The position numbers and the translations under genes were made by a program. From assembly GCA_964503755.1 (NCBI GenBank), contig CAZDBO010000001.1:200926-264925 (forward strand): a stretch of DNA of 64,000 bases, given 5' to 3'. This document shows, piece after piece, positions 3,644 through 57,608 of the stretch (positions are counted from its first letter, which is position 1; each line of letters begins with the position of its first letter). The notes under the pieces are model-generated. The model did no database searches. It was not told where the DNA came from and saw only the letters and a list, made by a program, of their open reading frames with translations. Origin of the DNA: an uncultured Candidatus Saccharibacteria bacterium. Lineage in GTDB: Bacteria; Patescibacteriota; Dojkabacteria; JAOAGR01.

Positions 3644-4423
3644 ATGCGAGGAAATATAAAGGCATTGTTAATTTTTCTAAAGAAACAAAATATTGACTTT
3701 GTACAGCATGATGAAAATTTTATTGAAGTAAATTATAAAAATCAAAAACTATTTTTTATAAATTGTCGTGTCCCTTTTAATGATCATGCAAAATCAACCT
3801 TGTTTACCGATAAATATTTTACATATACATTACTCAAGGATAATCTAAAAATGCCGAAAACTTATTTTTACTTAGATCCTTTTGTTGAAAAGAAGTTTGA
3901 TAGATATAGAAAATTTTTAACTTATGATGAAATTTCTTCTGATGTCAAATCTAAATTTTCACTACCCTTTGTAATAAAACCAAATAGATTATCAAGGAAA
4001 AAAAATTTTTTTCTTATAGATGATCCGAAAAAGTTAGAGTTTGCTATTAAGCAAATTTTTAACCATAAAAGTGAAAATTATGATTATGGATTGATCTGTC
4101 AGGAATATATAAATATCAAAGATGAATATCGAGTTATTGTAGTTGCTAACGAAATCAAACTTATCTATAAAAAATGGAAATTTATTAAGATAACAGATAT
4201 TAATATGATATTTGATATTCAAAAGTTTGCTGAAAACATTGTAAAAACAGTGCAATTAGACTTTGTTGGTATCGATTTAGCATATGATATAAATGGAAAT
4301 CTTTTTTTAATCGAAATAAATAGTGCGCCTGATTTCACCCCATACATTAAACATAATTGTATTGACGATATTGTAGATATATACTCTTTTGCCTTTGAAA
4401 AATTCGTCTTCTATTTTACCTGA
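3644..4423 (+). CDS. ATP-grasp family ligase (RimK/alpha-L-glutamate ligase-like)
   Basis: Contains ...YRVIVVANEIKLIYKK...VGIDLAYDINGNLFLIEINSAPDF..., an ATP-grasp C-terminal signature. The start is set at ATG 3644 to avoid the 5' antisense overlap with sufS. Confidence 0.55.
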   Translation: MRGNIKALLIFLKKQNIDFVQHDENFIEVNYKNQKLFFINCRVPFNDHAKSTLFTDKYFTYTLLKDNLKMPKTYFYLDPFVEKKFDRYRKFLTYDEISSDVKSKFSLPFVIKPNRLSRKKNFFLIDDPKKLEFAIKQIFNHKSENYDYGLICQEYINIKDEYRVIVVANEIKLIYKKWKFIKITDINMIFDIQKFAENIVKTVQLDFVGIDLAYDINGNLFLIEINSAPDFTPYIKHNCIDDIVDIYSFAFEKFVFYFT

Positions 4424-5393
4424 TTGCTTTGTCTAATATTGGTTTTATGCCAATTTCATAATCTTGATTACCAACAATTTCGGCTAGAAGATTATAAGTT
4501 TTAGTTTGGCTGGTTTTCCCATCTAAGGTCTTTATAGTTACTTCTTTTACTTCATAAAGATAAAAGGTAGGTGTACCGGTAGTGCCTAATATATCACTGC
4601 TGAATTGTGATATTTTTCTCACATGCTCCTCGTATTGTCCCGAATTTATACATGATTCAAATTTATTTACATCTAACGACTTTGTAGCTTTTATACTATT
4701 AAAATATTCTTTCGCTTTATTTATATCGAATGGAGAAAAATTTTTATAATAGATAGTTTTTAGCTCAAAAAAAGCTTTTGGATCCTGCTCTCCAGCACAA
4801 TATAAAGATGAATGTTTTCTTATATCGCCTAACCCTTGTTTGTCAACAAAAATGTAGGTTAGTTTACCAGTTAACAAAAAATCACGCGATAATTTTTCAA
4901 AACTTGAATCTTTGTTTTGTTGATATCCATGAAACTTTGCACAGTTTATACAATCTAAGTCACTAATCTCAACGAATATATATTTTGCGTTTACATTATA
5001 AGTAAGTATCGGTTGGTTTTCTAGGACGCTATTGCTAGATTCATAGTTTTTGGGCGTCTTAAACGAATAAAATGCATATTTTGGTAATACATAAATTAAA
5101 TTTTTATATATAACATCATGCAAGTTGAAAGCAAAAATAAATGTAATAGAGACAATCAAACTGCTGATAATTATACTTAAAGATGCTATTAGGTTAAAGT
5201 TATACTTTATTTTTTTTAGTTTGTTTTCAAGCCATGGAAATTTTAGATCAAAATTCTGGAATCTCAGAAGAAGATTGTGTATCTGTGATGGAATTTGTTT
5301 GATTTGAGCTAGTATCGATCTCTTCATGATATAAATCTTTTCTATTATATACTGTTTTAAGAAGTGTTTCATTAAAAGGTTGGGGGAGCACAA
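4416..5393 (-). CDS. membrane-anchored DsbA-like thiol:disulfide oxidoreductase (thioredoxin fold)
   Basis: One N-terminal TM helix plus ...VEISDLDCINCAKFHGYQ..., a CxxC in DsbA-like context. The true start is probably downstream of 5393 (ATG at 5327 or a non-ATG start near 5250), because the 5' part overlaps another ORF. Confidence 0.5.
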   Translation of the reverse strand: MCSPNLLMKHFLKQYIIEKIYIMKRSILAQIKQIPSQIHNLLLRFQNFDLKFPWLENKLKKIKYNFNLIASLSIIISSLIVSITFIFAFNLHDVIYKNLIYVLPKYAFYSFKTPKNYESSNSVLENQPILTYNVNAKYIFVEISDLDCINCAKFHGYQQNKDSSFEKLSRDFLLTGKLTYIFVDKQGLGDIRKHSSLYCAGEQDPKAFFELKTIYYKNFSPFDINKAKEYFNSIKATKSLDVNKFESCINSGQYEEHVRKISQFSSDILGTTGTPTFYLYEVKEVTIKTLDGKTSQTKTYNLLAEIVGNQDYEIGIKPILDKAIR

Positions 5394-8124: not shown

Positions 8125-11019
8125 TTATAATCTTTTGCTTAATTCTCTCTGTTCTAGTTCGCGTAGAATTGTCTTAACAGTATCGCAATTATCCATGCGA
8201 CAGGCTATATGAGTGAAATTATTATTGAAAATATACTCAGCAACTTCACTCGGTTTTTCAAATCCACTTATATCAATTATAGAATTATCTTTTAAACTAT
8301 CTCGCTGTGATAAATATTTAACAAGATTTCTCATACCTTCTACAAATTTAGTTGACGCAGTAAGTTTTTCTACACCAAGCATGTTCATCTTCAACCTGAA
8401 TAGATCATAATAGCGTCCGTCAACAAGAATATTGTCCATAATTTCTTCTAAACGAAAAACGTTGATCATGCGCGATACATTGGCATAGATAAAAAATGTA
8501 GAAGATCTTTTTAATCCAACTTTATTTAATAATTGTTTGGTCTGAACTATATCCTTTTTATTACGATAATCCGGTAAAATAAGCGAAAGATTCTTAAATT
8601 TAGACCTAATATTGTTGTGTATTTGCACTAAAAAGTTAAGCATAACTTGACTTTCGTATGGGGGGCATATAACTAGTACTTTTTTTTCTAAACCTATTAT
8701 TTGTAAATTCTGTAAAAGTAAATTTATGCCTACAGGCATATCTTGGGTAAAAGAAAAAATCGCGCCATCATAATTAGCTAGAGAACGATCGACAACTTCG
8801 TCTATCAGATGAACATATACTTTTGATATTGTAGGCACAAAGTCCAGATATTTTTTATGTCTTTTAGGAGTATTAATTTCATGTATATATGATTCTTCTA
8901 TGTCAAAATTAAATTCTTTACTTTCATTTGATATCTTATTAAGCTCGTAATTTATAGAATCAATGGATGTTGTTGCCTGTTGTGGATTTACTTCACTACT
9001 GGTTCTAACGAGCTTTTGCAAACTATTGGCCCATAGTTTTGTTTGATCAGATTCACTGATTCCTTGTACTACATCTAAATTATTATTTTCTACTACTGTT
9101 TTTTTTTCATCTTCTGTTACATAATTTAATATACTTTCTAGTATACTTTGTTTATCTTCTTTATTTGTTTCTGCTATATAAATAGAGCTCTCAGAAATAT
9201 CTGATTTAACATCCGCCTGAATTATATATTCTTTTTTTGGTTCGACTGGTATAGATAAAGATTCGCCTTCTATACCTTCATGTGTTTGTCGTTCTAATTG
9301 TATTGTAAGGTCAATTTGCGTATTAGGTTCTGTTATTTCAAATGTTTCTTGTGATAAAGAATTTTCATTTGTAACTTTATTTATGTTATCAGTCTTAAGT
9401 CCTTCCGTACTGTTCGATATACTTGATATTTCAATATTATTTGTTGCATTCGGGTCAGAAACGTATATTCCTCCTGTTTGAGGATCAATTCTTATTGGTT
9501 CACCTTCTTTTAATAGTCTATTTGCCAAAGGTGCACCAGTAATAATTGGTATTTTAAAATGTTCATAAAGCCTTATTGCCAATATCTCTGATGGTTCTAC
9601 TATTATAAATCCTCTAACTTTAAGATCAGCTCTAATATCCTCGAAACCTTCAAGGATAAGAATACTATCTTCGCTTGGAGATTCATAATTAAAAGTAGCC
9701 TTTCCCACAACTACTGAATCTCCCCTATAATATCGTCCTTCAATCAAAGGACGTTGTTTAAATATTACATTGTTGTCCATATGATCATAGATTACATTTT
9801 TTTGAAATTCTTTTCTAGTGTTGTTTTCAACAGTAATATTTTCTGCTTTATTTATATAGTTTGATGATAAATTTTCATTTAAATTTGTCGCCACGTCTTG
9901 ATCATCTGTAATGGGCTTAAATATTTGTTGGGGTAATTCAGTTTGTTCAAAATGAATAATAAAACTATTTTGATTTACTTGATCTAAAAATTGATTATGT
10001 TTTGCGCTTAGGGTAATATCTTCTATTTGCTGTGTATCTGATAATTTATCGTCTTCTTGATAATTAATCTCGATTTGTTCTGAGTTTTTATTGTCTCTAA
10101 CTTCGATTTGTTCTGCAGTTTTTTCAGGTATTGCGTTATTAATTTCTATTTCTGTTTCATCTATTTCTGTATCAAATATGATATCCTCAGTACTTTTTTT
10201 AGGTACATAATCTATTTGATTAATGTAATAAATCCATATTTTGCCATTATCTAGCATCCAGTGTATTTCATAATCTCTATGAAGTTCTTCTGAGATGATT
10301 TTTATAGTTTTGGTTAGTGATTTAATATGTTTGTCGTCTATTTTTTGTTTCTTTTGCCAAGCAACAGAAACTTCTATCTGCTTGTATGGTAATGCATCAT
10401 GTCCTCGAATATACATGAATTTTTGTTCTGCAATATGTTTCTCGAGTATTTTTTCTGTATTTTTATTTACGATATAAGTGTCATATTCAATATTTAGATT
10501 GTTAACTGGTATTCCATAAGCAGCCTCGATAAGTATTGTTTCATCAGAATTGTTTAATACATTCTTGGAAAAAGCATATCCAAAAGAATCACAGTTATTT
10601 GATTTTAGTATCAGTATGTTAACTATACTATTTGAATATTGTTTCAAAACATTTGTCTGCATCTCATTAATAACATCTTCTATTGAAAAGATTATCTTTT
10701 GTATACCTTTTACTTGATATGCACATAAATCTTTTATAATCTGATTATTATCATTAGATTTAATAAAAACGAAGATATTGACATATGATTCGGTTAATCC
10801 AGATATTGATTCATATTGGTCAATTATTTCTTTGGAAATTGAGTCTCTAATATGTGAATCAGTAGAATTGCTTGCTAATTTTGTTACTCCACTATGACTT
10901 ATTATAAATCCATTTGGTATAGGTAGTAATTCTTTATATAGATCTGATAATAAAACTGTTAAATCAGTAAAATCTTGGCCTGCTTTGATTTTTTCTTGTA
11001 GACTATATACGTGCTTCAT
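8125..11019 (-). CDS. large PEP-utilising enzyme (PEP synthase/PPDK)-like multidomain protein, probably non-canonical
   Basis: 964 aa. The N-terminus resembles the PPDK/PEPS nucleotide-binding domain (PIPNGFIISHSG...). The central segment resembles the PEP-utilisers mobile domain (...RGFIIVEPSEILAIRLYEHFKIPIITGAPLANRLLKEGEPIRIDPQTGGIYV) but has no His at the phospho-carrier position. The C-terminal roughly 240 aa are TIM-barrel-like. Long E/N/Q/I-rich low-complexity linkers separate the domains. Confidence 0.5.
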   Translation of the reverse strand: MKHVYSLQEKIKAGQDFTDLTVLLSDLYKELLPIPNGFIISHSGVTKLASNSTDSHIRDSISKEIIDQYESISGLTESYVNIFVFIKSNDNNQIIKDLCAYQVKGIQKIIFSIEDVINEMQTNVLKQYSNSIVNILILKSNNCDSFGYAFSKNVLNNSDETILIEAAYGIPVNNLNIEYDTYIVNKNTEKILEKHIAEQKFMYIRGHDALPYKQIEVSVAWQKKQKIDDKHIKSLTKTIKIISEELHRDYEIHWMLDNGKIWIYYINQIDYVPKKSTEDIIFDTEIDETEIEINNAIPEKTAEQIEVRDNKNSEQIEINYQEDDKLSDTQQIEDITLSAKHNQFLDQVNQNSFIIHFEQTELPQQIFKPITDDQDVATNLNENLSSNYINKAENITVENNTRKEFQKNVIYDHMDNNVIFKQRPLIEGRYYRGDSVVVGKATFNYESPSEDSILILEGFEDIRADLKVRGFIIVEPSEILAIRLYEHFKIPIITGAPLANRLLKEGEPIRIDPQTGGIYVSDPNATNNIEISSISNSTEGLKTDNINKVTNENSLSQETFEITEPNTQIDLTIQLERQTHEGIEGESLSIPVEPKKEYIIQADVKSDISESSIYIAETNKEDKQSILESILNYVTEDEKKTVVENNNLDVVQGISESDQTKLWANSLQKLVRTSSEVNPQQATTSIDSINYELNKISNESKEFNFDIEESYIHEINTPKRHKKYLDFVPTISKVYVHLIDEVVDRSLANYDGAIFSFTQDMPVGINLLLQNLQIIGLEKKVLVICPPYESQVMLNFLVQIHNNIRSKFKNLSLILPDYRNKKDIVQTKQLLNKVGLKRSSTFFIYANVSRMINVFRLEEIMDNILVDGRYYDLFRLKMNMLGVEKLTASTKFVEGMRNLVKYLSQRDSLKDNSIIDISGFEKPSEVAEYIFNNNFTHIACRMDNCDTVKTILRELEQRELSKRL

Positions 11020-16702: not shown

Positions 16703-17172
16703 ATATAGTCAAAGATATAGTCAGCAGATTTTTACAATTACTATTAGAAGAAGGTAAGTATGAATTTGATATACAAGTGCTTTCTCAAAATGAAATAAAA
16801 ATATATATAGGTGGAGAATATTCTGCTTATTTAATAGGTAAGAGGGGAAATACTCTTTTGGCATTACAGCATCTGATAAGACAGATATATATTCAAAATA
16901 CCGGTGACTTTGCTGAAAATATAAAACTAATAATAGATGTAGATGACTACAAAAGAAAAAGAATAGAGAAACTTTATCAGATAGTAGATAAATATATTAG
17001 TGAAAATCATTATAAACAAAGGATACCTTTACCATCAATGAAGGCTTCTGATAGAAAAATTATTCATAATTATGTAACTCAGAAATATCCTCAATACAGT
17101 ACAAAAAGTGAAGGAGAAGAACCGCGAAGGAGAGTAGTTATATTTTTGAACAATGCACAAAATAATCAATAA
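16684..17172 (+). CDS. jag: Jag/KhpB RNA-binding protein (KH-like and R3H domains)
   Basis: 162 aa. Its position immediately after yidC is the classical arrangement, and it has a C-terminal R3H-like segment. Confidence 0.7.
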   Translation: MAEEKLNIVKDIVSRFLQLLLEEGKYEFDIQVLSQNEIKIYIGGEYSAYLIGKRGNTLLALQHLIRQIYIQNTGDFAENIKLIIDVDDYKRKRIEKLYQIVDKYISENHYKQRIPLPSMKASDRKIIHNYVTQKYPQYSTKSEGEEPRRRVVIFLNNAQNNQ

Positions 17173-18664
17173 CATAACACAAAAATTAGTTAATAGTCCA
17201 AAATTTTATCGTTTTTTGGAAATGCTGCCTGGTATTTTATCTCTATTATTTATTTTTTTACCGGTCATATTGGCATTTTTTAATCCTGTATGGGCTGCAT
17301 ATTTTGTGCTTTTATATATGGTTTATTGGACTTATAATAGTATAAAATTTATTGTATACGCATTTATAGCTCATAAAAAAGTTTTAACTGTAAAATCTAT
17401 TGACTGGATTGAAAAACTGAAAAGTGATTATCCGGATGAATGGAATAAATATTATTATGTAGCACTTATTCCTTTTGCTTCAGAATCAATAAATGTATTA
17501 AGGCCTACTGTTCAATCTATAGTAGATAACAACTGGCGAAAAGATCGTAAAATATTATGTTTGTCCTCAGAAAAAGCTATCCCAAAAGGAAAACAAGTTG
17601 CTGAAGAGCTTAGAGAAATTTTTAAGTATGAATTTGCATATATTTTTATCACAGAACACGAATTAAAAGAGGGAGAATTAAAGGGAAAAGCAGCTAACCA
17701 AAATCATGCGGCTAGATTTTTATATGATGAATTAATCAAGATCGGCCTAGACCCAAAATATGTTTTATTAACAAGTAATGATGCGGATGTTAGAAATGAT
17801 AAAGAATATATCCCGTATTTGATACACAAATTCTTATGCGAAGGTGATGAACGCTACTACCGTATTTATCAACCTATACCAACAGATTATTCTGATTTCT
17901 GGGATGCAAAATTTTTTTCTCGTTTAATTGTATCGATAGGGGCAAATTGGAGACTGGCCTTGCAGCAAAGAGATAATTATCGCTGTACTGTTTATTCTTT
18001 TTATTCGATGAGCTTGTATACTTTAAAAGAGATTGGATTTTGGGATGTTGATCTTATACCGGAGGATGAACGTACGATGTTTAAGGCTTTATTTCGTTTT
18101 GGTGAAAAATTTAAAGTTGTGCCATTATTTATTAATACTTATGGTAATCCTGTTCAAGCTGATTCATTTTGGAAAGCAGCGAAAGAACAGTACATACAAG
18201 TTCGTCGTTGGGCTTGGGGAGCATCAGAGTTTGCTTATTCGTTTACTCATGCATTAAAAAACACACATGTTTCTTGGAGGGTAAAACTTTTACCTATACT
18301 CAATCAGCTACGTACAGCGGTAGAATGGTCTTCATCGTCTATATTGCCATTGCTTGGAGGATACATACCAGGGCTTTTCAGTCAAGAATTTAGACTAACC
18401 ACATTAAATCATTATTTAGGACCAACCATTGTTTTACTTATTCAGTTAGCTTCCTTATTGGTCTTGATGATTGTTTATATAGAGTATCAATTGATACCCA
18501 AGAGTGATAATACCAAAGGTATTATGAGATTCTTAAAGTATATTCACTGGATACTAATGCCTTATGTTGGTTTGATTTTTAGTTCTATACCTGCTTTAGA
18601 CGCTCAGATAAAACTACTTTTGAATAAACGTATAGTTTATGTTGAAAGTAAAAAAGAAAAGTGA
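17153..18664 (+). CDS. integral-membrane processive family-2 glycosyltransferase (cellulose/chitin/hyaluronan synthase-like)
   Basis: 503 aa. TM helices flank a GT domain with a DxD-like TSNDAD, an ED motif (PEDERTMF) and the Q-x-x-R-W signature (QVRRWAWG). It ends with a TGA stop. Confidence 0.65.
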   Translation: MHKIINNITQKLVNSPKFYRFLEMLPGILSLLFIFLPVILAFFNPVWAAYFVLLYMVYWTYNSIKFIVYAFIAHKKVLTVKSIDWIEKLKSDYPDEWNKYYYVALIPFASESINVLRPTVQSIVDNNWRKDRKILCLSSEKAIPKGKQVAEELREIFKYEFAYIFITEHELKEGELKGKAANQNHAARFLYDELIKIGLDPKYVLLTSNDADVRNDKEYIPYLIHKFLCEGDERYYRIYQPIPTDYSDFWDAKFFSRLIVSIGANWRLALQQRDNYRCTVYSFYSMSLYTLKEIGFWDVDLIPEDERTMFKALFRFGEKFKVVPLFINTYGNPVQADSFWKAAKEQYIQVRRWAWGASEFAYSFTHALKNTHVSWRVKLLPILNQLRTAVEWSSSSILPLLGGYIPGLFSQEFRLTTLNHYLGPTIVLLIQLASLLVLMIVYIEYQLIPKSDNTKGIMRFLKYIHWILMPYVGLIFSSIPALDAQIKLLLNKRIVYVESKKEK

Positions 18665-19807: not shown

Positions 19808-20035
19808 TCATGTAGGTAATATTGTTTGGCTGTCGTCTAAGTTTTGAGATCCACATCTTGGGCATGTTGTATGTTCTGTGCTTCCCTCATATACATATCC
19901 ACAATCTTTACATATGATATGGTATATTATACCATTGGTTTGATTTACGTCGCTTGGTCCTTTTGACAAGTCTATTATACCCGCCATTATATCGGGGTCT
20001 AGCTGATAGCCTTGGTAGGTGTTTGGGTTTAACAT
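19808..20035 (-). CDS. small rubredoxin-like zinc-ribbon protein
   Basis: 75 aa with CKDCGYVYEG...CPRCGS, a rubredoxin-type CxxCG...CPxCG knuckle pair. Confidence 0.45.
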   Translation of the reverse strand: MLNPNTYQGYQLDPDIMAGIIDLSKGPSDVNQTNGIIYHIICKDCGYVYEGSTEHTTCPRCGSQNLDDSQTILPT

Positions 20036-20090: not shown

Positions 20091-20384
20091 ATGGCGTCTA
20101 CAAAAAATCAAAAAAATGATATTTTAAGTATGACTGATGAGGAAATAATTTCTACCTTTGCAGTGTCAGAAAAAGATACGGGTTCTCCTGAAGTACAAGT
20201 AGCTTTATTTACAAAAAGAATACAGAACTTGATTGAACATTTGAAAAAAAATAAAAAAGATATCCACTCGAGACGTGGACTTTTACAAATGATTGGTAAA
20301 AGGAGAAGAATGTTAGAATATTTAAAAAGGAAGGATGAGGCTAGATATAAAAAAATAATTGAAGCTGTTGGACTAAAAAGATAA
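20091..20384 (+). CDS. rpsO: 30S ribosomal protein S15
   Basis: 97 aa with ...[24 protein letters not shown]..., typical S15. Confidence 0.9.
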
Positions 20385-20386
20385 CT

Positions 20387-22498
20387 ATGCAAAAAAATAA
20401 ATTTTCTTTCGATTTTTACGGTAAAGAATACATTATAGAGTTTGGACATATTGGATTTAATTCGGATGTTTGTTTTTTGCTTACTTGCGGAGGAACTTCG
20501 GTACTTTTGAATCTTGTTATTGGTAAAGAAGATACTACTTTAGATTTCTTTCCTTTAACAGTAGAATATATTGAAAAGCTTTACGCATCTGGTCAAATCG
20601 CATCTTCGCCTTACATCAAAAATGAAGGTAAACCAAATGATCATGAAATTTTAAATGCACGATTGATTGATCACGCGATACGTTCCTTGTTTCCATCTGA
20701 TTTTAGAAGGGAGGTACAGATAATATGTCAAGTTGTTTCTTATGATAGGATTGTAGATCCTGTTTTGATATCGATTGAAGGTGTTAGTTTTGCCGTGGTG
20801 TATTCAGGTCTTCCATTTTATGGTCCTTATGGTACGACTAAAATAGGATACAAATCAGGAGAATTTTTGATAAATGCCGATATATCTGATTTTGCCGAAT
20901 CAGAGATGGAAATGTTTGTTTCAAGTGTCGAAAAAGGTATTGTTTCCATTGAGGCAGATATTCATAATTTGTCTGAAGATATTGTTAAAAAGGCTATACA
21001 AATATCATTTGAAAAAAATCAATATTTGATAGATAAACAAAAAGAATTTGTCTCTTTATTTTCACCTAAATCAACTTTTGAAATAAAAAAAGAAGAAAAT
21101 CCATTCTTTACTATTTACTACGAAGAAATAGAAAAAAACTTTAAGTTAGATATTGAAAATGCTATCTATGTAAAGGATAAAAAATCTCGTGAGATAAATT
21201 TAAAGTCACTTTTTGAAAAAATAAAATCATTTTTTAGTGAGAAAAATTCTAATCAAGAGATCGAAGAATCTACTCTTAGGTTAGCATATGAAAAAATTCA
21301 AAAAAACTTAGTTAGAAATAACATAATTAATTATGAAAAAAGACCGGATGGTCGGAAATTAGACGAAATTAGACCGATAGATGTGCGGGTTGGAGTACTA
21401 CCATCTGTGCATGGTTCGGGGTTGTTTACAAGAGGAGAAACACAGTCATTGACCGTTGTTACTTTGGGAACTGATCAGGATGCATTAATTTATCAAAATT
21501 TGGAGGGAGATCTTTCGAAAAGATACTTTCATCATTACAACATGCCTGGATATGCAAATGGCGAGATAGATAGAAAAATAGGTTTTCAAAACAGACGAGC
21601 TATCGGCCATGGTGCTATAGGAGAAAAGGCTTTGAAAAATGTTTTGCCAAAATATGAAGAATTCCCTTATACCATAAGAATTGTATCAGAGATAGTATCT
21701 TCCAATGGTTCAACCTCCATGGCTGCTACATGTGGTTCGACATTAGCGTTGATGGATGCTGGTGTTCCTATCAGGGATGTTATTGGTGGTATTGGAGTTG
21801 GTCTTGTGTATGAAAGTGAAGACAAATATAAAATTCTAACTGATATTATAAATATTGAGGATTTTTTTGGTGATATGGACTTCAAAATTACCGGGTCTGA
21901 GACTGGTATCACTGCTATACAGCTTGATAATAAGCTTGCCGGTATTCCTATCAAAGTCATATTTGAAGCAATAGATAGATCACTACAGGCGAGAAAGTAT
22001 GTGATAAATTGCATGAAAAACAGTATAAGTTCACCTAGGAGTAAAGTTGCCGATAATGCTCCAAAAGTAAGAATAGTAAAGATAAATCCGGAAAAGATTG
22101 CTGAGTTGATTGGTCCTGGAGGAAAGAATATAAAGGATATTATTGAAAAAACAAGTACTGAAGTAAAAATAAATCCAGATGGTACAGTTATAGTTTATGG
22201 AAAAGATCAATTAGGGCTTGAAAATGCTTTGCATATGATACAGAGTGTAGGGTTTGTTTTAGATGAAAATAATGAATATCAGGCAGAAGTAGTACGTATA
22301 GAAGAATATGGTGCTATCGTGCGGGTTTTAAATACAAATGTATTTGGTCTCATACATATATCGACTTTTAATAATTCATCAGAACATAAGTTCGTAAAAA
22401 TAGATTTAAATAGAATATTTAAAGTTGGTGATATAGTTAAGGTGAAATATATAGGTAATGATGTCAAAGGAAGACCCAAATTTAGACTTGCACTATAA
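20387..22498 (+). CDS. pnp: polynucleotide phosphorylase
   Basis: 703 aa with two RNase PH domains, KH and S1 domains, in the canonical rpsO-pnp order. Confidence 0.9.
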   Translation: MQKNKFSFDFYGKEYIIEFGHIGFNSDVCFLLTCGGTSVLLNLVIGKEDTTLDFFPLTVEYIEKLYASGQIASSPYIKNEGKPNDHEILNARLIDHAIRSLFPSDFRREVQIICQVVSYDRIVDPVLISIEGVSFAVVYSGLPFYGPYGTTKIGYKSGEFLINADISDFAESEMEMFVSSVEKGIVSIEADIHNLSEDIVKKAIQISFEKNQYLIDKQKEFVSLFSPKSTFEIKKEENPFFTIYYEEIEKNFKLDIENAIYVKDKKSREINLKSLFEKIKSFFSEKNSNQEIEESTLRLAYEKIQKNLVRNNIINYEKRPDGRKLDEIRPIDVRVGVLPSVHGSGLFTRGETQSLTVVTLGTDQDALIYQNLEGDLSKRYFHHYNMPGYANGEIDRKIGFQNRRAIGHGAIGEKALKNVLPKYEEFPYTIRIVSEIVSSNGSTSMAATCGSTLALMDAGVPIRDVIGGIGVGLVYESEDKYKILTDIINIEDFFGDMDFKITGSETGITAIQLDNKLAGIPIKVIFEAIDRSLQARKYVINCMKNSISSPRSKVADNAPKVRIVKINPEKIAELIGPGGKNIKDIIEKTSTEVKINPDGTVIVYGKDQLGLENALHMIQSVGFVLDENNEYQAEVVRIEEYGAIVRVLNTNVFGLIHISTFNNSSEHKFVKIDLNRIFKVGDIVKVKYIGNDVKGRPKFRLAL

Positions 22499-22518: not shown

Positions 22519-22944
22519 ATGAAATTAAATTCAGCGTTAAATAGATTTTTATTATTTTTATTCCTTAATTTATTATCATTTGTTATAAGTATTCGTAATG
22601 TACTGGCTCAGGGAAATAATAATACAACTAATCAATGTCCAGCTAATGGTATTTATAATCCATTAGATCCTAACTGTGATAGAAACTTAAATCTAGGTGT
22701 GATATTTAATGTTATATTAAATGTAGTTCCGTTTATAGTAGTACTTATTGCTGTGGGATTTTTTGCCTGGGGAGCTATAAAAATTATGATTGCTGGTGAA
22801 GATAGTAATGCAAGAGAGAAAGGTATAGAAACAATGAGAAATGCAATTATCGGATTAATAGCATTTTTTTTTATTGGAATGATTCTTTGGGTTATATCAT
22901 TGATAACAGGTTTTAATATAGCATCATTTATTTTGGGTAATTAA
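22519..22944 (+). CDS. secreted two-helix hairpin membrane protein, paralogue A (VirB2/TrbC-pilin-like topology)
   Basis: 141 aa. Signal peptide (...RNVLA/QG), a Cys pair (QCPANG...NCD), helix 1, the cytoplasmic loop AGEDSNAREKG, then helix 2. Confidence 0.6.
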   Translation: MKLNSALNRFLLFLFLNLLSFVISIRNVLAQGNNNTTNQCPANGIYNPLDPNCDRNLNLGVIFNVILNVVPFIVVLIAVGFFAWGAIKIMIAGEDSNAREKGIETMRNAIIGLIAFFFIGMILWVISLITGFNIASFILGN

Positions 22945-22947
22945 ATT

Positions 22948-23523
22948 ATGCAAACCTCAACAAACAAAATAAAAACAATTAAAAAAATAATTAATTTGAT
23001 TTTCTTTTTTATAATTTCCGTACAGTTTGTAATTTATTTTAATAATGCTTTTACTGTTTTTGCAAATACAACACCGACTGATACGTGTGATATTAATTGT
23101 TTGAGACAACGACTTGGTCTTGTTGATGATCAAGGTAACAGTACAGTACAAGATACTTTTGGACTTTTAGAGCCTAGAGATCCAAATGATTTTATTATAT
23201 TAGTTTTTCAAATACTTCTTTATGCTGCACTAATTATTGCTGTTGGCAGTATAGTTTTTGCAGGATATAAGATTGCTGGAGCAGGGGATAACGCTGATGA
23301 GAGAAAAAAAGGTTTTGATAAGTTAGTTTGGTCAATAGTTGGATTTGTTTTATCTATTTTGTCACTTACAATTATAAATTTGATTTCATCTTTTTTTGGA
23401 TATCAATTTGATGGAAATATAACTGAACAACTTTGTAGAAATTTACAAAACTATCCTAATCCGGATCAGGAGTTGGTAGATGAATGTAACAGGAGGTATC
23501 CCGGTTCATTTACCCCACCCTAA
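22948..23523 (+). CDS. secreted two-helix hairpin membrane protein, paralogue B
   Basis: 191 aa. Signal peptide, a Cys pair (DTCDINC), helix 1, the loop AGAGDNADERKKG, helix 2, and a C-terminal tail with a second Cys pair. Confidence 0.6.
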   Translation: MQTSTNKIKTIKKIINLIFFFIISVQFVIYFNNAFTVFANTTPTDTCDINCLRQRLGLVDDQGNSTVQDTFGLLEPRDPNDFIILVFQILLYAALIIAVGSIVFAGYKIAGAGDNADERKKGFDKLVWSIVGFVLSILSLTIINLISSFFGYQFDGNITEQLCRNLQNYPNPDQELVDECNRRYPGSFTPP

Positions 23524-23832
23524 TACTAACACAAGAGGTGGAAGAGGTGGTATACCGACTATGCAACCGACGTAAAGTCTGTTTTGTTTTTCTGATATAT
23601 CAAATAGAATTGAGTGACTTTCAAGATTGTTTTAATATACAAGCCTCCTTTGTATATAGCAGTTATTTTACGTTATTAATATTGGTTATTTAAACAGGTT
23701 GAATATGTGGGTATAAGAATATAAATTATTTCTATCTGTGGTAAAATTAATTTGAAGTATTTTATATACGATGATTTGTAATACCAATGACAATTTGTTA
23801 GTCTTGTAATTTCAGAAAATCTAATATAAAAT

Positions 23833-24384
23833 ATGACTAATATGTCAAATCAAAACAAATTAAAACAAATAATATTTACTTTAATAATTTCTACTTTTTT
23901 ATTTGCTTTTGTCGCATATCCAGTAAATGCTCAACTTGCTAATGTTTTTCCAACACCATTCGGCGGAGACGGTAGATTGGATTTAGGTGCTATAGTTACT
24001 TTCTTTTTTAATATTGTGCTTTATGTAGCTTTGCTCTGGGCTGTATGGCATATTGTTTTGGCTGGCTTTACTATAACTAAAGCCAAAGATAATGCAGACG
24101 AGAGGAAGAAGGGTATAGATGCTATAATCAACGCTGTAATAGGTTTGGTGGTTGCTTTATTGGCTTTTGTCATAGTTAGCGTTGTTACAAATTTCTTAGG
24201 CGTAAGTGTTTATCAGCTTGAAATATCATCTGTACCTTGTACTGGAAGAACAGCTAATGGTGAAGTATTTCCTGGTTTCCACCCTCAGGGACAAAATGGT
24301 ATAGATTATAATACCTGTGCAACTAAGGATGGGAGAAAAACAGGTTCTGTAATACGTGGTGGTACGTCTATACCTAGACCATAA
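23833..24384 (+). CDS. secreted two-helix hairpin membrane protein, paralogue C
   Basis: 183 aa. Signal peptide (...PVNA/QL), helix 1, the loop TKAKDNADERKKG (identical core motif to paralogue B), helix 2, and a Cys-containing C-terminal tail. Confidence 0.6.
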   Translation: MTNMSNQNKLKQIIFTLIISTFLFAFVAYPVNAQLANVFPTPFGGDGRLDLGAIVTFFFNIVLYVALLWAVWHIVLAGFTITKAKDNADERKKGIDAIINAVIGLVVALLAFVIVSVVTNFLGVSVYQLEISSVPCTGRTANGEVFPGFHPQGQNGIDYNTCATKDGRKTGSVIRGGTSIPRP

Positions 24385-24431: not shown

Positions 24432-24508
24432 GAGCCATTAGCTCAGTTGGTTAGAGCACGGTGCTTATAACGCCGGGGTCGCTGGTTCAAATCCAGCATG
24501 GCTCACCA
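24432..24508 (+). tRNA. tRNA-Ile with anticodon TAT (UAU); body resembles tRNA-Ile2
   Basis: Acceptor GAGCCAT/ATGGCTC, D-arm TAGCTCAGTTGGTTAGAGC, anticodon stem CGGTG/CGCCG with loop CTTATAA, T-arm GCTGGTTCAAATCCAGC, then CCA. Confidence 0.75.
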
Positions 24509-40895: not shown

Positions 40896-43800
40896 ATGGA
40901 AAATTCTAATTTTAGTAGCAAATTCTCAGGTATTTTTATTAACAATTTGCGATTTACGTTTATTACTTTGATATTAATTGTTTTATTGGGAGTGTATGCA
41001 GTGTTAAATCTTGTACCTACAGGATTTCCACAGCCAAGTGTAAACTTGATTAACATAGCCGCCACTTATCCTGGTGCTAATACTAATGTTGTTTTAAACA
41101 ATGTTACTGTTCCCTTAGAAAACGTTGTAACTAAATATTATTCTGATGTAGATACATACTCATCTACTATTAATAATGGATTTACAAACATTATAGTAAC
41201 ACCTAAGTTTGGTGTAGATGTAGAGGAATTAATTACTAAGATTGAAAACGATGTAGAACAACTTAATTTGCCAGAAGTAGTAGATGTTAAAGTTTCCAAG
41301 CCAGAGTTTCCTTCTGTTGACTTCGTTATTGCGATTTTTTCCGAGAATAGAGAAGAACTATACGTGAAATATAAAGAGTTTTTAAGGCAAGCCAGATCAA
41401 TGCCAGAAACTGATTCTGTAATACCACAGGTAGATCTCAAGCAAATAGTGGATATCAAGCTAGATGAATCAAAGCTAAATCAGTATAGAATCAGCACTAA
41501 CGATATAAAGCAAGCAATATCAAATTATGAGTTCAATATTCCTATAGCTCAAAATATAACTGTAGATAATTCTCAAACATCTTTTATATTAAATGGTTCA
41601 GATGTAGAGAATTTGGATCAGCTTTCGAATGTGGTCATTCGAACGCAAAATAATCAGTTAGTAAAACTAAACGAAATCGCTGATCTTACATATAGATATG
41701 TTTTTACAAATAGCGAATTTCCTAGTCTAGCTTTTGACGATAATCCTACATATTTTGGTTTTGTTCAAAATGATAAAAATTTGACAAAAGAAGCGATACT
41801 TTTAAATTATTCTGCTGCTGGAGGATATTCTATCGAAGAAGTACAGAATAAAATATCAAATTTACTGAAATATATTGGTTTGACAAATATAGATAATAAT
41901 GAAATCTCTAGAGAAAAAATTTATTTTGAAATTCCATACTCCGCAAGTGCCGTTTCTAAAAAGCAGATAGATGAGGTCGTAAACGGTCTTTTGCAAGGTG
42001 CAATTTTAGTTTTTTTGGTAATGTTCATTTTTGTTTCTTGGAGGGCTGCTATTATTGCGACTTTGGGTATACCGGTAAGCTTAATTTTTGCGTTAATTTA
42101 TATATTCTTGACTGGAGATGAACTAAATACTTTAGTACTTTTTTCTCTAGTATTAGTTGTTGGACTGGTTGTGGATCCTGCTCTTGTGATTCTTGAGGTT
42201 TTACAAAGAAAATTAGACGCTGGATTGAGTAAGTTACAAGCTGTAATAGAGTCAATCAAAGAAGTAGGTGATGGACTTTTAGCATCAACCGTGACTAATA
42301 TTATTGTATTCATTCCTTTTGCAGTTGTATCAGGAGTACTTGGACAAATATTTGGCTATATACCAAAGACAATAATACCAGCAATTGTTGGTTCTTATGT
42401 TGTTTCTGTGGTGTTTTTAGCAATATTTGGTGGAATGTTTCTTGCTAAACGTAGAAAAAAGCAAAATGAACAAGTTGAAGATGAAGAGTATGCATCTATA
42501 TGGCCAATATCAAAAAAGGTAGAAGAAATAAATAGATTTATTTTGAATTATCATAATAAAATAAAAAATAAATTTGTTGCAGGTTTGATACAAATCACTA
42601 TTGTAATCGCTTCTATTGTTGTTCCTTTGGCAATAGTTGGATATCTCTTCGGAACCGGTCAGCTTAGATCTACCCAATTTACTCAAAACAGAACTGGATC
42701 AACACTGAATATACTTCTTGACAGACGTTCGGATATATCATCCGTAGAGATAAATCAACTAACTAAGCAAACTATAGAATTTATAGCAAGTACGGGTTTA
42801 TTTGATAATGTAACACCATTTAGTACACAGATAATTGCATCACTAAAAAAAGACTATCAAAATACTGCATTAGAAAAAGCTCAGGATCTGAGAGAACTTC
42901 TTGTAAATAAGTTCGGTGACAAATATCTTGATATAAATGTTGTGGTAGGTGGTGGAGCTAATACGACAAATAGCTATCAGGTTAATCTGGCGATAAGGTC
43001 AGATGAAAATCAGAAATTAATAGAGTCATCAAATATTTTTGCCGAGAATATAAAAAGTAATCTTTGTCAAAATAATAAAAATTTATATTGGGATGAAAAT
43101 TGTGAAGAACAAAATAGCGTTATAGAAAAAGTAGATAATGGGATTGATGGAAGATTACAAAATCAGATCAAGATTACTCTTGATATACAAAAGGTATTGG
43201 AGAACAATTTAAGTATACCTGGTACTCCATTATTTAGTTTTGTATTGTCACAATTACAAAAACAATTTCCTAAATCTCAAATTACAAATGTTTCAAATTT
43301 TAACAATATTGATGAAACAAAAGTATATACAACTATTAACTTGGATAAAGATGTAAATTTGAAAACATTAGATGATGTTAAAAATATAAATATCGTTTCG
43401 CCTCAAGGCGTTATCTTCAGGTTAAGTGATATTGCAAATGTGGAATTATCACAGATAAACCAAACAGTAACACGTTTTGAAGGTAAAACCGCCAATCGTA
43501 TCAAAATAAGATTAAAAGAAGAGTTTAGGTTAGATCAGGCTTATGCATCTAGAGTGGCGAATTTTATTGTACAAAAGTATTCAGAAGACAATTATAAATT
43601 AACAAGGGAATTAGGATTAGAAAACGAAGCAATTTATATAGATAGATCCGGAGCTAGTGCTGAATTTGTGCGTGGATTTACTGAACTTTTGACGGCATTT
43701 GTGTTAAGCATATTTTTGATATATGCAGTATTAGTTGTACTTTTCAAATCATTCTCTATGCCCATCGTGGTTATATTTACGATTCCTTTATCCTTTATTG

Positions 43801-44201
43801 GAGCGTTTTTGGGAATAAAATATTTTGTTGGTCCTGAATTTGGATTTTTAGAAATTATAGGACTGATTATATTGGTTGGTATTGTTGTAAATGTTGCAAT
43901 ATATATGATTGATTTTGCTAATCAAAAGACAAAAGAAAACGGTTGGGATGATAAGAAAGCAATTATTTATGCATCAGCCGTAAGATTTCGACCTATATTT
44001 TTAACAACATTCACTTCTATTACTTCTTTGGTACCGTTGTATATTAATAGCGATTTTTATAAATCTATATCAGCTGTTATTATTGGTGGTTTGTTTACTT
44101 CGACTATTATCTCTTTGTTTGTTGTACCTGTATTGTATGTATGGATTAATAGAATGCGTAGAAAAATACACAAGATTTTTCATAGGATATCTTTGAGCTA
44201 A
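40896..44201 (+). CDS. RND-family efflux transporter permease (AcrB/HAE-like)
   Basis: 1101 aa with 12 TM helices and two large external loops. The N-terminus (...LVPTGFPQPSVNLINIAATYPGANTNVV) parallels AcrB (...[23 protein letters not shown]). Confidence 0.78.
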   Translation: MENSNFSSKFSGIFINNLRFTFITLILIVLLGVYAVLNLVPTGFPQPSVNLINIAATYPGANTNVVLNNVTVPLENVVTKYYSDVDTYSSTINNGFTNIIVTPKFGVDVEELITKIENDVEQLNLPEVVDVKVSKPEFPSVDFVIAIFSENREELYVKYKEFLRQARSMPETDSVIPQVDLKQIVDIKLDESKLNQYRISTNDIKQAISNYEFNIPIAQNITVDNSQTSFILNGSDVENLDQLSNVVIRTQNNQLVKLNEIADLTYRYVFTNSEFPSLAFDDNPTYFGFVQNDKNLTKEAILLNYSAAGGYSIEEVQNKISNLLKYIGLTNIDNNEISREKIYFEIPYSASAVSKKQIDEVVNGLLQGAILVFLVMFIFVSWRAAIIATLGIPVSLIFALIYIFLTGDELNTLVLFSLVLVVGLVVDPALVILEVLQRKLDAGLSKLQAVIESIKEVGDGLLASTVTNIIVFIPFAVVSGVLGQIFGYIPKTIIPAIVGSYVVSVVFLAIFGGMFLAKRRKKQNEQVEDEEYASIWPISKKVEEINRFILNYHNKIKNKFVAGLIQITIVIASIVVPLAIVGYLFGTGQLRSTQFTQNRTGSTLNILLDRRSDISSVEINQLTKQTIEFIASTGLFDNVTPFSTQIIASLKKDYQNTALEKAQDLRELLVNKFGDKYLDINVVVGGGANTTNSYQVNLAIRSDENQKLIESSNIFAENIKSNLCQNNKNLYWDENCEEQNSVIEKVDNGIDGRLQNQIKITLDIQKVLENNLSIPGTPLFSFVLSQLQKQFPKSQITNVSNFNNIDETKVYTTINLDKDVNLKTLDDVKNINIVSPQGVIFRLSDIANVELSQINQTVTRFEGKTANRIKIRLKEEFRLDQAYASRVANFIVQKYSEDNYKLTRELGLENEAIYIDRSGASAEFVRGFTELLTAFVLSIFLIYAVLVVLFKSFSMPIVVIFTIPLSFIGAFLGIKYFVGPEFGFLEIIGLIILVGIVVNVAIYMIDFANQKTKENGWDDKKAIIYASAVRFRPIFLTTFTSITSLVPLYINSDFYKSISAVIIGGLFTSTIISLFVVPVLYVWINRMRRKIHKIFHRISLS

Positions 44202-48809: not shown

Positions 48810-49328
48810 ATGAATGAATTGTTTGAAAATTTTTATCAAAATACTTTTTCAAAGGCTTATAAGTATTTATATATTCGCATCAATAACGTAGGTGACATAG
48901 AAGATATACTGCATGATGCATATCTCGTTTTTTATGAAAAATATAGAGAAAAACTTCATTCCACCGAAGGTGAAAAGATTTTATTTGGTATTATCCAAAA
49001 AAAATACATTGATTATATTAGATCAAAATATAGAGAATATGAAAATATAGAGTATATAGATAATCTGTCAGAATACAACCCAATCATAATTTCTCAATTA
49101 GATTTAACACATTTAGAAGAAAAAATTAAAGATTATATCTACAAGCTAGAAAAGAAATATCCAAAGCTTATGATTGTTTTACGTATGCGAATTTTGGATA
49201 AGATGAGTAGAAAAGAGATAGCAGAAGTTTTGGGTATTAGTGAAGATAATGTGCATACATATCAAAAAAGAGCCGTATCTATAATAAAAAAATTAATTAG
49301 TAATGAAAAAGATGATGACAAAAAATAA
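48810..49328 (+). CDS. ECF-type sigma-70 family RNA polymerase sigma factor
   Basis: 172 aa. Region 2 is ...ILHDAYLVFYEKY..., and the region 4 HTH is ...MSRKEIAEVLGISEDNVHTYQKRAVSIIKK... Confidence 0.72.
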   Translation: MNELFENFYQNTFSKAYKYLYIRINNVGDIEDILHDAYLVFYEKYREKLHSTEGEKILFGIIQKKYIDYIRSKYREYENIEYIDNLSEYNPIIISQLDLTHLEEKIKDYIYKLEKKYPKLMIVLRMRILDKMSRKEIAEVLGISEDNVHTYQKRAVSIIKKLISNEKDDDKK

Positions 49329-52005: not shown

Positions 52006-52392
52006 ATGGTAAATGAAAAAACAAATCAAATAAACAAAAAAACAATACTTTTAATAGTGGCGATCATATTGACTCTCATTACTGGATCTATCATTTCATA
52101 TTTTTATTTTCAAAACTTATCTAGAGTATCAAATAATGTTAACAACAGAGAATTGGATAGCTTTAAAAGTAGTAATAATAATGTTGAAAATATCGAAGAT
52201 TTAACGGATGACAATTTAGACTATAAAAATCCATTTTTGGATATAGAAAAAACTGATTTAGAATTTGATGACGGTTTTAGTACAATAGAAGATATTAAGA
52301 ATAATATTTTAAATTACGTATTTGGTGATACAGAATTTAGAAATGATAATTTTTATAATTTAATTTTGATTCGATTAACATTGCTGTTATAG
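52006..52392 (+). CDS. N-terminal, TM-anchored part of a probably frameshifted gene
   Basis: 128-aa ORF. Its last roughly 12 codons (...NFYNLILIRLTLLL*) look like out-of-frame read-through. The adjacent frame is open from 52359 and continues into ORF 52563..53396. Confidence 0.4.
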   Translation: MVNEKTNQINKKTILLIVAIILTLITGSIISYFYFQNLSRVSNNVNNRELDSFKSSNNNVENIEDLTDDNLDYKNPFLDIEKTDLEFDDGFSTIEDIKNNILNYVFGDTEFRNDNFYNLILIRLTLLL

Positions 52393-52562
52393 ATAAATAT
52401 GATGTTAATCCTTTTCTAACTCGTTTAGATTTAGCAAGAGAGATAGATGTAACAGACTACGAAGAGAATTTTGTTGAAATAAATTATACTTATAGAGAAA
52501 CTAATAGTACTAATTTTAAGTTTAGATGTACGCAAATTCTGAATGTTTATTTAATAGCGAAT

Positions 52563-53396: not shown

Positions 53397-53420
53397 TAAA
53401 TTAACATTATTAAAAAATAA

Positions 53421-53448
53421 AAGGCAGGAATTACTTCCTGCCTTTTTG
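53421..53448. terminator. bidirectional rho-independent terminator between convergent genes
   Basis: aaggcaggaa-ttac-ttcctgcctt forms a 9-10 bp stem, followed by TTTT. It lies between the stop at 53396 (+) and the ilvE stop at 53471 (-). Confidence 0.7.
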
Positions 53449-53470
53449 CATTCTTGTTATTTATTTCAAT

Positions 53471-54388: not shown

Positions 54389-54465
54389 AGAATAAAATTG
54401 TAAGATAAATTTGTTAGTTTGTAAATTTGAAATAAATATCTTGTATGTATTAAAATACCTTTCGT

Positions 54466-54551
54466 GGAGAGTTCGCCTAGTGGTCTATGGCGCTGCTCTG
54501 GAAAGGCAGTTGGGGAAACCCTCGTGGGTTCGAATCCCACACTCTCCGCCA
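54466..54551 (+). tRNA. tRNA-Ser (anticodon GGA), long variable arm
   Basis: Acceptor GGAGAGT/ACTCTCC, anticodon stem CTGCT/GGCAG with loop CTGGAAA, a 14-nt variable arm, T-loop GGTTCGAATCC, then CCA. Confidence 0.88.
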
Positions 54552-54643
54552 GGCTCAAGGTTTTCATTCATTAATATTTTGAGGGTAAGACTTATCGTTA
54601 TACAAATACGAGATATAATTTTTCGCTGAGAATATTTAACAGT

Positions 54644-55090: not shown

Positions 55091-55109
55091 TATTTTAATA
55101 TAATAGACT

Positions 55110-56967: not shown

Positions 56968-56992
56968 CAAGTATATAGAGATTTTATAGTAT

Positions 56993-57598: not shown

Positions 57599-57608
57599 AT
57601 AAAATATT

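Follow-up and report, generated by a model that had tools for sequence, protein, structure and literature searches.

Patescibacteria are a large, mostly uncultured group whose members, as far as they have been studied, live on the surface of other bacteria. [quoted passage not shown] We consider it probable, at roughly 0.75, that the trio is a chromosomal VirB2-like pilin array (PF18895) of a Patescibacteria-type T4SS. Arrays of this kind are already described across Patescibacteria; the pilin reading is supported, not new, and the finding is real but ordinary.

Three paralogous hairpin proteins behind rpsO-pnp

The relevant features of the window, i.e., the whole 64-kb stretch of DNA that was analyzed, are as follows.

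4416-5393 (-): membrane-anchored thioredoxin-fold (DsbA/MdbA-like) oxidoreductase, a possible accessory
20091-20384 (+): rpsO
20387-22498 (+): pnp, forming with rpsO the operon directly 5' of the pilin array (ORFs, Pfam)
22519-22944 (+): pilin A, 141 aa, canonical short form almost without tail; signal peptide residues 1-30 (22519-22608); N-segment outside, with C40/C53; hairpin core residues 56-135 (22684-22923)
22948-23523 (+): pilin B, 191 aa as encoded; signal peptide residues 1-39 (22948-23064); N-segment with C47/C51; hairpin core residues 79-152 (23182-23403); tail residues 153-191 (23404-23520) with C163/C180, predicted to form two short helices
23519-23575 (+): ancestral C-terminal tail of pilin B, intact but shifted into the +1 frame, PNTNTRGGRGGIPTMQPT followed by a stop
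23833-24384 (+): pilin C, 183 aa; signal peptide residues 1-33 (23833-23931); hairpin core residues 48-129 (23974-24219); tail residues 130-183 (24220-24381) with C136/C162, predicted to form a small four-stranded beta domain
24432-24508 (+): tRNA-Ile (anticodon UAU), 3' boundary of the array (ARAGORN; Rfam tRNA, 70.4 bits)

The ORF coordinates match exactly the three same-strand genes described earlier, and their placement between pnp and a tRNA in a housekeeping context holds for the window. Pilin A starts only 20 nt past the pnp stop codon, which makes co-transcription of A and B with rpsO-pnp probable; alignment with orthologues indicates that the true start of pilin C is probably the second ATG, at 23842. 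A profile scan of all ORFs retrieved only these three pilin copies in the window. When the surroundings of the array were scanned for promoters and terminators, sites were no more frequent than in shuffled sequence of this AT-rich DNA, the Rfam scan of the window returned tRNAs only, and the B-C spacer showed no stable fold in its 140 additional nt (z 0.21).

Paralogy of the trio, claimed initially from shared architecture, is statistically real by BLASTP, with 29% identity between A and B over 105 aa (E 7e-8), 30% between A and C over 81 aa (E 1e-9), and 41% between B and C over 81 aa (E 2e-19). The topology was derived from hydropathy, V-x-A sites, the distribution of cysteines, and AlphaFold2 (AF2) monomer models. 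Each protein begins with a hydrophobic signal segment ending in V-x-A (VLA|Q in A, VFA|N in B, and VNA|Q in C), at which the signal peptide would be cleaved, and two long hydrophobic helices follow, in agreement with the Sec signal and two-helix architecture proposed at first. These helices form hairpins in the AF2 models of pilin B (H79-111/H116-149; model pLDDT 72.6, tail blocks 84-88) and pilin C (H51-83/H88-121; model pLDDT 75.7, tail blocks 81-91). The loops quoted previously, AGEDSNAREKG, AGAGDNADERKKG, and TKAKDNADERKKG, are present in the three proteins; their description as positively charged was borne out only in that they are densely charged, since their net charge of 0 to +1 is nearly neutral and not clearly basic.

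Cysteines are always paired and occur exclusively in predicted outside segments. As had been noted, the N-segment carries a pair in two of the three paralogues, A and B, and the C-terminal tails of B and C contain cysteines, one pair each. We infer that these pairs form disulfides. The membrane-anchored DsbA-like gene mentioned earlier is indeed present in the window, with a match to PF13462 (Thioredoxin_4) at 5e-13, a transmembrane anchor, and a CINC active-site motif; an MdbA-like family enriched in the candidate phyla radiation (CPR) has been described (PMC6744442). This enzyme could form the pilin disulfides.

The order rpsO-pnp-three pilins is kept in four relatives (L002, L019, L004, and L005), down to 55% PNPase identity. 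The assignment of the organism to Candidatus Dojkabacteria is based on the named orthologue and on the syntenic contig JAOAGR010000002.1; NCBI calls the orthologues, that of pilin C (P0002) among them, 'pilin [Candidatus Dojkabacteria bacterium]'. In L002 the same tRNA follows pilin C, and the orthologue of pilin A is 84% identical. Orthologues of the pilin genes are 76-84% identical compared to 80-97% for the housekeeping neighbors, i.e., about equally conserved, and the hairpin cores are 89-92% identical. The trio is under purifying selection, and only the signal peptides and the exposed parts of C evolve clearly faster between orthologues. The earlier suggestion that exposed parts have diversified is thus only partly borne out; between paralogues these parts are not alignable. 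Conservation at the level of housekeeping genes argues for three fixed, specialized subunits rather than rapid antigenic variation.

Relation to T4SS pilin families

All three proteins exceed the curated whole-protein gathering cut-off of the Pfam profile T4SS_pilin (PF18895; 26.6 bits), with scores of 34.8 (A), 35.9 (B), and 37.4 bits (C), and they align to positions 8-68, 12-71, and 11-71, respectively, of its 71 positions, the charged loop motif included. Precomputed annotation of the same proteins agrees with this assignment, and the trio has the architecture of the family: a signal peptide, a short outside segment, two transmembrane helices, and a charged loop. The family is large, with 94,756 cluster representatives matching at E ≤ 1e-3, and all 30 aligned members match PF18895 (best 2e-24). 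Together with the matches of 12 of these 30 to PF04956 (TrbC/VirB2; best 3.5e-6), this supports the initial reading of the topology as VirB2/TrbC-type.

The trio itself stays below the gathering cut-off of PF04956 (27.9 bits), at 14.9 bits for B (E 0.031) and 13.1 bits for C (E 0.12), and pilin A gave no match to this profile. On these profile comparisons the link between the trio and PF04956 is transitive only, through the 12 relatives. When the family was aligned by hhalign with eight authentic VirB2/TrbC proteins from MPF_T plasmids, the result (E 0.013, probability 3%) was not significant, so that direct homology of the trio to classic VirB2 is not demonstrated, although the weak alignment places the mature N terminus and helix 1 in the same register. 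A search of PDB sequences with the family profile returned hydrophobic noise only and did not find VirB2/TraA; Foldseek found no significant PDB match for the pilin C model, and its top hits (E 0.3) were Tudor/Hfq-like and fell on the small beta tail. Like VirB2/TrbC of diderm MPF_T systems (Agrobacterium VirB2, PF04956), the trio combines a signal peptide, a short N-segment, two hydrophobic helices, and a charged loop; unlike them, it lies between pnp and a tRNA, whereas all eight authentic VirB2/TrbC genes fetched are flanked by virB1/virB3, its host is thought to be monoderm, and it has extra C-terminal domains not found in VirB2.

The Mycoplasma ICE 'pilin-like conjugal transfer protein' family (NF045849; Mbov_0395 family, ICE_MMCAP2_0565) has the same two-helix hairpin and gives significant full-length profile matches; its name assigns it to the conjugative elements (ICEs) found in wall-less monoderms. 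All 30 aligned members match NF045849 (best 4e-17), and the window proteins do so at E 9e-5 to 1.8e-8; because these values are significant while the scores (22.1, 33.9, and 31.1 bits) fall below the equivalog cut-off of 40 bits, the trio is homologous to this family without being a member. The Mycoplasma proteins are encoded on mobile ICEs, whereas the trio occupies a stable chromosomal housekeeping locus.

The nearest counterparts are the VirB2-like arrays of Patescibacteria (Quinonero-Coronel et al. 2025, PMC12102498), of which 441, with 2-11 genes each, were reported from 383 assemblies. These belong to the same PF18895, are tandem and same-strand with Sec signals, are chromosomal with no relaxase nearby, and show low mutual identity (average ~25%, maximum 54%). 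Such an array is defined by at least two VirB2-like genes of low mutual identity, adjacent or with one gene between them, in a Patescibacteria genome, where a VirB4 ATPase would also be expected, near or far; here there are three pilin genes, 29-41% identical. Further examples are the 'Sec-secreted array' of Nanosynbacter lyticus TM7x and the essential pilin series inside the T4SS cluster SEML1_0006-0019 of Southlakia epibionticum ML1 (Wang et al. 2023, PMC10633639). The trio differs from these arrays in standing outside a T4SS cluster, behind rpsO-pnp, as a fixed three-gene set across Dojkabacteria-like genomes. VirB2 paralogues of Bartonella/Anaplasma T4SSs are, as cited in PMC12102498, likewise tandem, divergent, and thought to vary the exposed surface; those organisms are diderm intracellular pathogens, whereas orthologues of the trio are conserved like housekeeping genes.

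Secretion machinery and rival readings

As stated in the first-pass annotation, genes for VirB4, VirD4, and VirB6 are missing within the 64-kb window. Its leaning toward a non-canonical system is not supported, because Patescibacteria pilin arrays often lie away from virB4: a pilin is near virB4 in only 1,135 of 1,948 VirB4-bearing assemblies and apart from it in the other 813, roughly 40% (PMC12102498). With a VirB4 from a pilin-adjacent cluster (L015) as query, the protein database yielded at least 8,000 candidates at E ≤ 1e-10; the best 120, 88-100% identical to this Saccharimonadia-type query, included no identified Dojkabacteria VirB4. In the published Table S1, two Dojkabacteria genomes are marked VirB4-positive, and the preprint lists Dojkabacteria among T4SS-bearing lineages.

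If the trio serves such a system, Sec/YidC would insert each precursor and signal peptidase I would cleave it behind the V-x-A motif. The mature pilin would then stay membrane-embedded as a hairpin, its two termini facing out and its charged D-N-A-(D/E)-E-R-K-K-G loop on the cytoplasmic side. Its external Cys pairs would be oxidized, and the DsbA/MdbA-like enzyme with its membrane anchor is a plausible catalyst. Subunits would next be extracted and polymerized by a VirB4-driven T4SS of monoderm type (MPF_FATA-like), whose genes would lie elsewhere in the genome, to give a pilus or conduit where the cell touches a host bacterium. Solved conjugative pili suggest, by analogy, a lumen lined by the loop and an exterior that carries the N-segments and C-terminal tails. 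In functional terms, a conjugative pilus subunit polymerizes with phospholipid into a helical filament; two papers treat such a pilus in Patescibacteria as a possibility only (PMC11665869, PMC12857230).

That the PF18895 proteins act independently of a T4SS, as a constitutive envelope component tied to rpsO-pnp and uncoupled from virB4, is unlikely. They might form hairpin oligomers that stay in the membrane, or a filament built by some other machine, of which we know none and see none in the window. The array indeed stands apart from any T4SS gene, within a housekeeping operon and 20 nt from the end of pnp, in an arrangement kept down to 55-58% PNPase identity; other relatives carry a pilin between clpC and thrS (L006) or an array of five pilins whose flanking 4-6 kb of contig on either side lack VirB4 (L018), and one paper calls what the T4SS does in Saccharibacteria completely unknown (PMC11665869). 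Against this reading, separation from virB4 is common in VirB4-bearing Patescibacteria, two Dojkabacteria genomes are marked VirB4-positive in the published table, and other members of the family occur inside T4SS clusters, as in the five-gene pilin array of a distant member (P0028) adjoining genes for VirB4 (P-loop_TraG/DUF87), a TraC-like protein, and PrgI (L015). Only one Patescibacteria species, S. epibionticum, has been tested genetically, and there both the T4SS and the pilin array are essential (PMC10633639, PMC12857230).

It is very improbable that the three are unrelated small two-helix proteins (holins, bacteriocin-immunity, or generic membrane proteins) with a Pfam match due to hydrophobic composition: all three exceed the PF18895 cut-off over nearly the full model including the charged loop motif, the locus is a conserved chromosomal housekeeping one and not a prophage, and the family profile retrieves proteins adjoining VirB4, an association of family and T4SS also reported in PMC12102498. 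Holins in particular were rejected, as PHROGs gave no holin or named phage family, with two weak matches to families of unknown function (E ~0.02), and the context is housekeeping. Type IV pilins of the PilA/ComGC kind, which would suit a group rich in type IV pilus genes (PMC6744442) and a weak profile match to Flp/PilA hydrophobic helices (E 0.16), have almost no chance of being right and were rejected from the N-terminal sequences: these have signal-peptidase-I-type V-x-A sites in place of the class III prepilin leader (short and basic, G|F-x-x-x-E), two transmembrane helices rather than one follow the signal peptide, and no Pfam type IV pilin or N_methyl match was found.

Predicted exposed domains and the tail of pilin B

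As a VirB2-like pilin array, the locus is a clean Dojkabacteria example that mainly confirms published genomics and opens no new question. It illustrates that pilin genes can part from the secretion genes and stay apart over evolution, here behind rpsO-pnp. Most retrieved homologues (~120-135 aa) end after helix 2, whereas two of the trio add C-terminal domains of 40-55 residues with one Cys pair each, and the models predict different folds for them, helical in B and beta in C. The three paralogues would present one core with three surfaces, undecorated in A, helical in B, and beta in C. Conserved individual paralogues with different exterior domains fit specialized subunits better than rapid antigenic variation.

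We regard as a long shot the fuller proposal that a three-pilin set, detached from its T4SS cluster and wired into the highly expressed rpsO-pnp operon, builds a pilus decorated with these different Cys-pair modules, the B tail possibly under +1 frameshift, and that the homology to NF045849 would place VirB2 homologues in monoderm MPF_FATA systems. To our knowledge, such systems are currently stated to have no VirB2 homologues; the whole-family match to NF045849 would, if the proposal is true, contradict that statement.

The annotated C terminus of pilin B results from a 1-nt insertion relative to the orthologues in L002/L019, in a region (23505-23530) with the C-containing tract ACCCCACCC; the orthologues have 204 aa compared to 191 aa here. 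The displaced tail is reached from the CCC_UAA_U site at 23518-23524, and the same 18 tail residues stand in frame in the orthologues, with all 8 nucleotide differences synonymous in that frame. As part of the same long-shot proposal, a +1 ribosomal frameshift at CCC_UAA_U might govern whether this RGG-rich tail is displayed: while the stop codon occupies the A site, the P-site tRNA-Pro would slip from CCC to CCU, which is the logic of prfB.

Organization, topology and predicted structure of the pilin genes

In this AT-rich window (G+C of approximately 30%), three genes here called pilins A, B, and C lie directly between pnp and a tRNA gene, as listed below.

20091-20384: rpsO, upstream of the pilin trio
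20387-22498: pnp, directly upstream of the pilin trio
22519-22944, + strand: pilin A, ORF of 141 aa
22948-23523, + strand: pilin B, ORF of 191 aa
23833-24384, + strand: pilin C, ORF of 183 aa
24432-24508: tRNA-Ile(UAU), directly downstream of pilin C

The first-pass annotation had described three consecutive same-strand paralogues with signal peptides and two-helix hairpins. The ORF coordinates agree exactly, and BLASTP bears out the paralogy, with identities of 29% over 105 aa for A and B (E = 7e-8), 30% over 81 aa for A and C (E = 1e-9), and 41% over 81 aa for B and C (E = 2e-19). A scan of all window ORFs with the family profile found these three copies only. Each protein starts with a basic n-region, after which a hydrophobic stretch runs up to V-x-A (VLA|Q, VFA|N, and VNA|Q in A, B, and C, respectively); two long hydrophobic helices come next, joined by the loop motifs that had been cited. 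With a 30-sequence alignment as input, AlphaFold2 likewise modelled hairpins of moderate confidence for B (helices 79-111 and 116-149, pLDDT 72.6) and C (51-83 and 88-121, pLDDT 75.7). The loop had been called positively charged, which is overstated, since it is densely charged yet nearly neutral (net 0 to +1). Cysteines are confined to predicted outside segments and always paired (C40/C53 in A; C47/C51 and C163/C180 in B; C136/C162 in C), a pattern in the sequence that independently supports an N-out/C-out hairpin.

The C termini differ among the three. A is essentially without a tail. With good local confidence, the models predict two short helices (157-167 and 174-183, pLDDT 84-88) holding C163/C180 for the tail of B, and a beta unit of four strands (131-173, pLDDT 81-91) holding C136/C162 for that of C. 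Because most other retrieved homologues (approximately 120-135 aa) stop straight after helix 2, these tails are a local elaboration.

Around these genes, orthologue alignment suggested the second ATG of pilin C (23842, MSNQNK...) as its start rather than 23833. The tRNA gene is itself uncommon for bacteria, as AUA is usually decoded by a lysidine-modified CAU tRNA; it is kept at the same position after pilin C in L002, a Dojkabacteria metagenome-assembled genome (MAG) contig.

A one-nucleotide insertion in pilin B

Pilin B falls 13 residues short of the 204 aa of its orthologues, the result of a 1-nt insertion within a C-rich tract (ACCCCACCC versus CTGC-TCC in orthologues), which puts a TAA in frame at 23521-23523. 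Its position in the window and in two relatives is as follows.

23512-23575: pilin B insertion site in the window
9825-9887: corresponding site in L002
10559-10615: corresponding site in L019, a Logan contig

In the +1 frame (23519-23575), the ancestral tail of 18 residues, PNTNTRGGRGGIPTMQPT, remains intact, and its 8 nucleotide differences from orthologues are all synonymous. A prfB-like slip at CCC_UAA_U, with tRNA-Pro moving +1 from CCC to CCU, would restore the exact orthologous length. The insertion agrees between the NCBI MAG and the Logan assembly of SRR11582145, which may share the same reads; programmed frameshifting is as possible as a very recent mutation or read-level error, and phase variation is a further candidate. 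Further downstream, the B-C spacer exceeds that of L002 and L019 by approximately 140 nt; the extra segment (23576-23717) had no Rfam match and folds no more stably than shuffled sequence (z = 0.21).

Family assignment and relation to patescibacterial pilin arrays

When the pilin reading was checked against Pfam, A, B, and C all passed the gathering cut-off of T4SS_pilin (PF18895; 34.8, 35.9, and 37.4 bits against 26.6), which all 30 aligned relatives also matched (best 2e-24), and homologues in the database carry the NCBI name "pilin [Candidatus Dojkabacteria bacterium]." In direct comparison, similarity to VirB2 proteins studied experimentally is weak: TrbC/VirB2 (PF04956) was sub-threshold for the window proteins, and an hhalign run against eight authentic VirB2/TrbC proteins of MPF_T systems, all encoded between virB1 and virB3, gave an E value of 0.013 and a probability of 3%. 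Of the 30 relatives, 12 matched PF04956 (best 3.5e-6). A holin-like reading was rejected with PHROGs, and a T4P pilin reading from the N-terminal sequences.

The family is among the common small-protein families of metagenomes, with 94,756 members at E ≤ 1e-3 and 34,266 at E ≤ 1e-10 (HMMER, 1.84 billion cluster representatives). Many top-scoring members in the representative library (in P0151-P0296, and also P0013 at 3973-4614 of locus L018) hold 2 to 17 hairpin units per polypeptide, for example 17 in the 1775-aa P0182 and 11 in the 1147-aa P0163. Either "poly-pilin" fusions or tandem arrays read through in gene calling may explain them.

A, B, and C also matched NF045849 ("Mbov_0395 family pilin-like conjugal transfer protein" of Mycoplasma ICEs) significantly but below threshold. 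All 30 relatives matched it too (best 4e-17), and two of the 30 matched NF045889 (Mbov_0396 ICE TM protein). This family-wide match sits awkwardly with the statement that monoderm T4SS classes, including MPF_FATA-type ICEs, lack VirB2 homologues (PMC12102498). It suggests that VirB2-like pilins exist in such ICEs, and that the pilin may have arrived together with MPF_FATA-type machinery.

Housekeeping surroundings without VirB4, VirD4, or VirB6 had been claimed, and the Pfam scan of approximately 40 further window ORFs agrees: those with matches were all housekeeping or transport genes (including ClpC, GatB, YidC, MurG, NUDIX, YebC, photolyase, MreB, L1/L11, FtsH, ThrRS, and an AcrB-like transporter), and no VirB4, VirB6, VirD4, PrgI, TrsD, or relaxase was found among them. 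This setting bears on the main rival explanation, that the family serves a T4SS-independent envelope role in Dojkabacteria, which we consider rather unlikely. Absence of an adjacent VirB4 is normal for the group. A search of 3,035 genomes with PF04956 and PF18895 found VirB2-like pilins in 1,948 VirB4-containing assemblies, only 1,135 of which had a pilin gene close to virB4, and 441 arrays of 2 to 11 pilin genes with an average within-array identity of 25% (Quinonero-Coronel et al. 2025, PMC12102498); its Table S1 lists two VirB4-positive Dojkabacteria genomes, and the preprint of that study counts Dojkabacteria among T4SS-bearing lineages. P0028, a distant member found with the window profile, lies in a five-gene pilin array (locus L015) divergent from a cluster of VirB4 (P-loop_TraG/DUF87/AAA_10), TraC-like/TrsD, PrgI, and two large unannotated proteins, which is the published Patescibacteria layout. 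In Southlakia epibionticum, the T4SS cluster and pilin series are essential for epibiotic growth by Tn-seq (Wang et al. 2023, PMC10633639), and a 2025 review considers these systems unique among monoderms in their potential for conjugative-type pili (PMC12857230). Altogether, the family evidence and the published arrays show the first-pass structural inference of a pilin to be correct and support assignment of the locus to the known patescibacterial VirB2-like pilin arrays, a phenomenon already described; this member is from Dojkabacteria, rpsO-pnp-linked, and tail-decorated.

The order rpsO-pnp-pilin-pilin-pilin is kept in L002 (GCA_026415655.1; PNPase 82% identical), which also retains the downstream tRNA, NUDIX, and YebC genes; in three Logan contigs (L019-L021), the longest of which, L019, retains NUDIX and YebC; and in two genomes further removed, L004 (PNPase 58% identical) and L005 (55%). 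Another Dojkabacteria MAG (L006) has a single pilin between clpC and thrS. Pilin A starts 20 nt past the pnp stop, which makes co-transcription of A and B with the rpsO-pnp operon probable; a promoter scan of the array was uninformative. In identity to their counterparts in the closest relative, the pilins reach 76-84% (cores 89-92%, signal peptides 39-67%, exposed parts of C 64-67%), against 80-97% for 15 neighbouring housekeeping proteins, so by sequence comparison the three are old, individually conserved genes rather than a rapidly varying cassette.

For the function of A, B, and C, including disulfide formation and polymerisation, we infer the following scheme. Each precursor would be inserted by Sec/YidC and cut by signal peptidase I after V-x-A, and the hairpins would pool in the membrane with the charged loop cytoplasmic. 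The outside cysteine pairs would then be oxidised, possibly by an MdbA/DsbA-like enzyme, a type enriched in CPR (PMC6744442); the window does encode the membrane-anchored oxidoreductase that had been claimed.

4416-5393, - strand: DsbA-like protein with a Thioredoxin_4 domain, membrane anchor, and CINC motif

VirB4-dependent extraction and polymerisation would finally yield a pilus or conduit at host contact. In solved conjugative pili, the loop faces the lumen and both termini the exterior; by analogy, the loop of these pilins would line the lumen, and the N-segments and C-terminal tails would form the exposed surface.

Other genes of the window

Several further genes had no or little Pfam assignment. 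A small sigma-70 region-4 protein (48810-49328, +) overlaps by 26 nt an 886-aa protein (49303-51963, +) that lacks a Pfam match and is predicted to have a single TM helix. The 886-aa product could be a surface protein or anti-sigma-like. Several more ORFs without a match lie in 52006-58619. Between a jag/khpB-like gene and murG, a 503-aa membrane protein (17153-18664, +), also without a match, shares 91% identity with its L002 orthologue, hence conserved and probably important. A 964-aa protein (8125-11019, -) has a partial PPDK_N (pyruvate phosphate dikinase ATP-binding) domain as its sole match; this large gene also occurs in L006, ahead of clpC. Divergent from and upstream of rpsO is a conserved 75-aa CxxC...CxxC protein (19808-20035, -), zinc-ribbon or rubredoxin-like, with RUBY_RBDX faint in orthologues. 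Finally, a full-length AcrB/AcrD/AcrF-family RND transporter (40896-44201, +; 1101 aa, E = 4e-105) is encoded in this presumed monoderm, genome-reduced bacterium.
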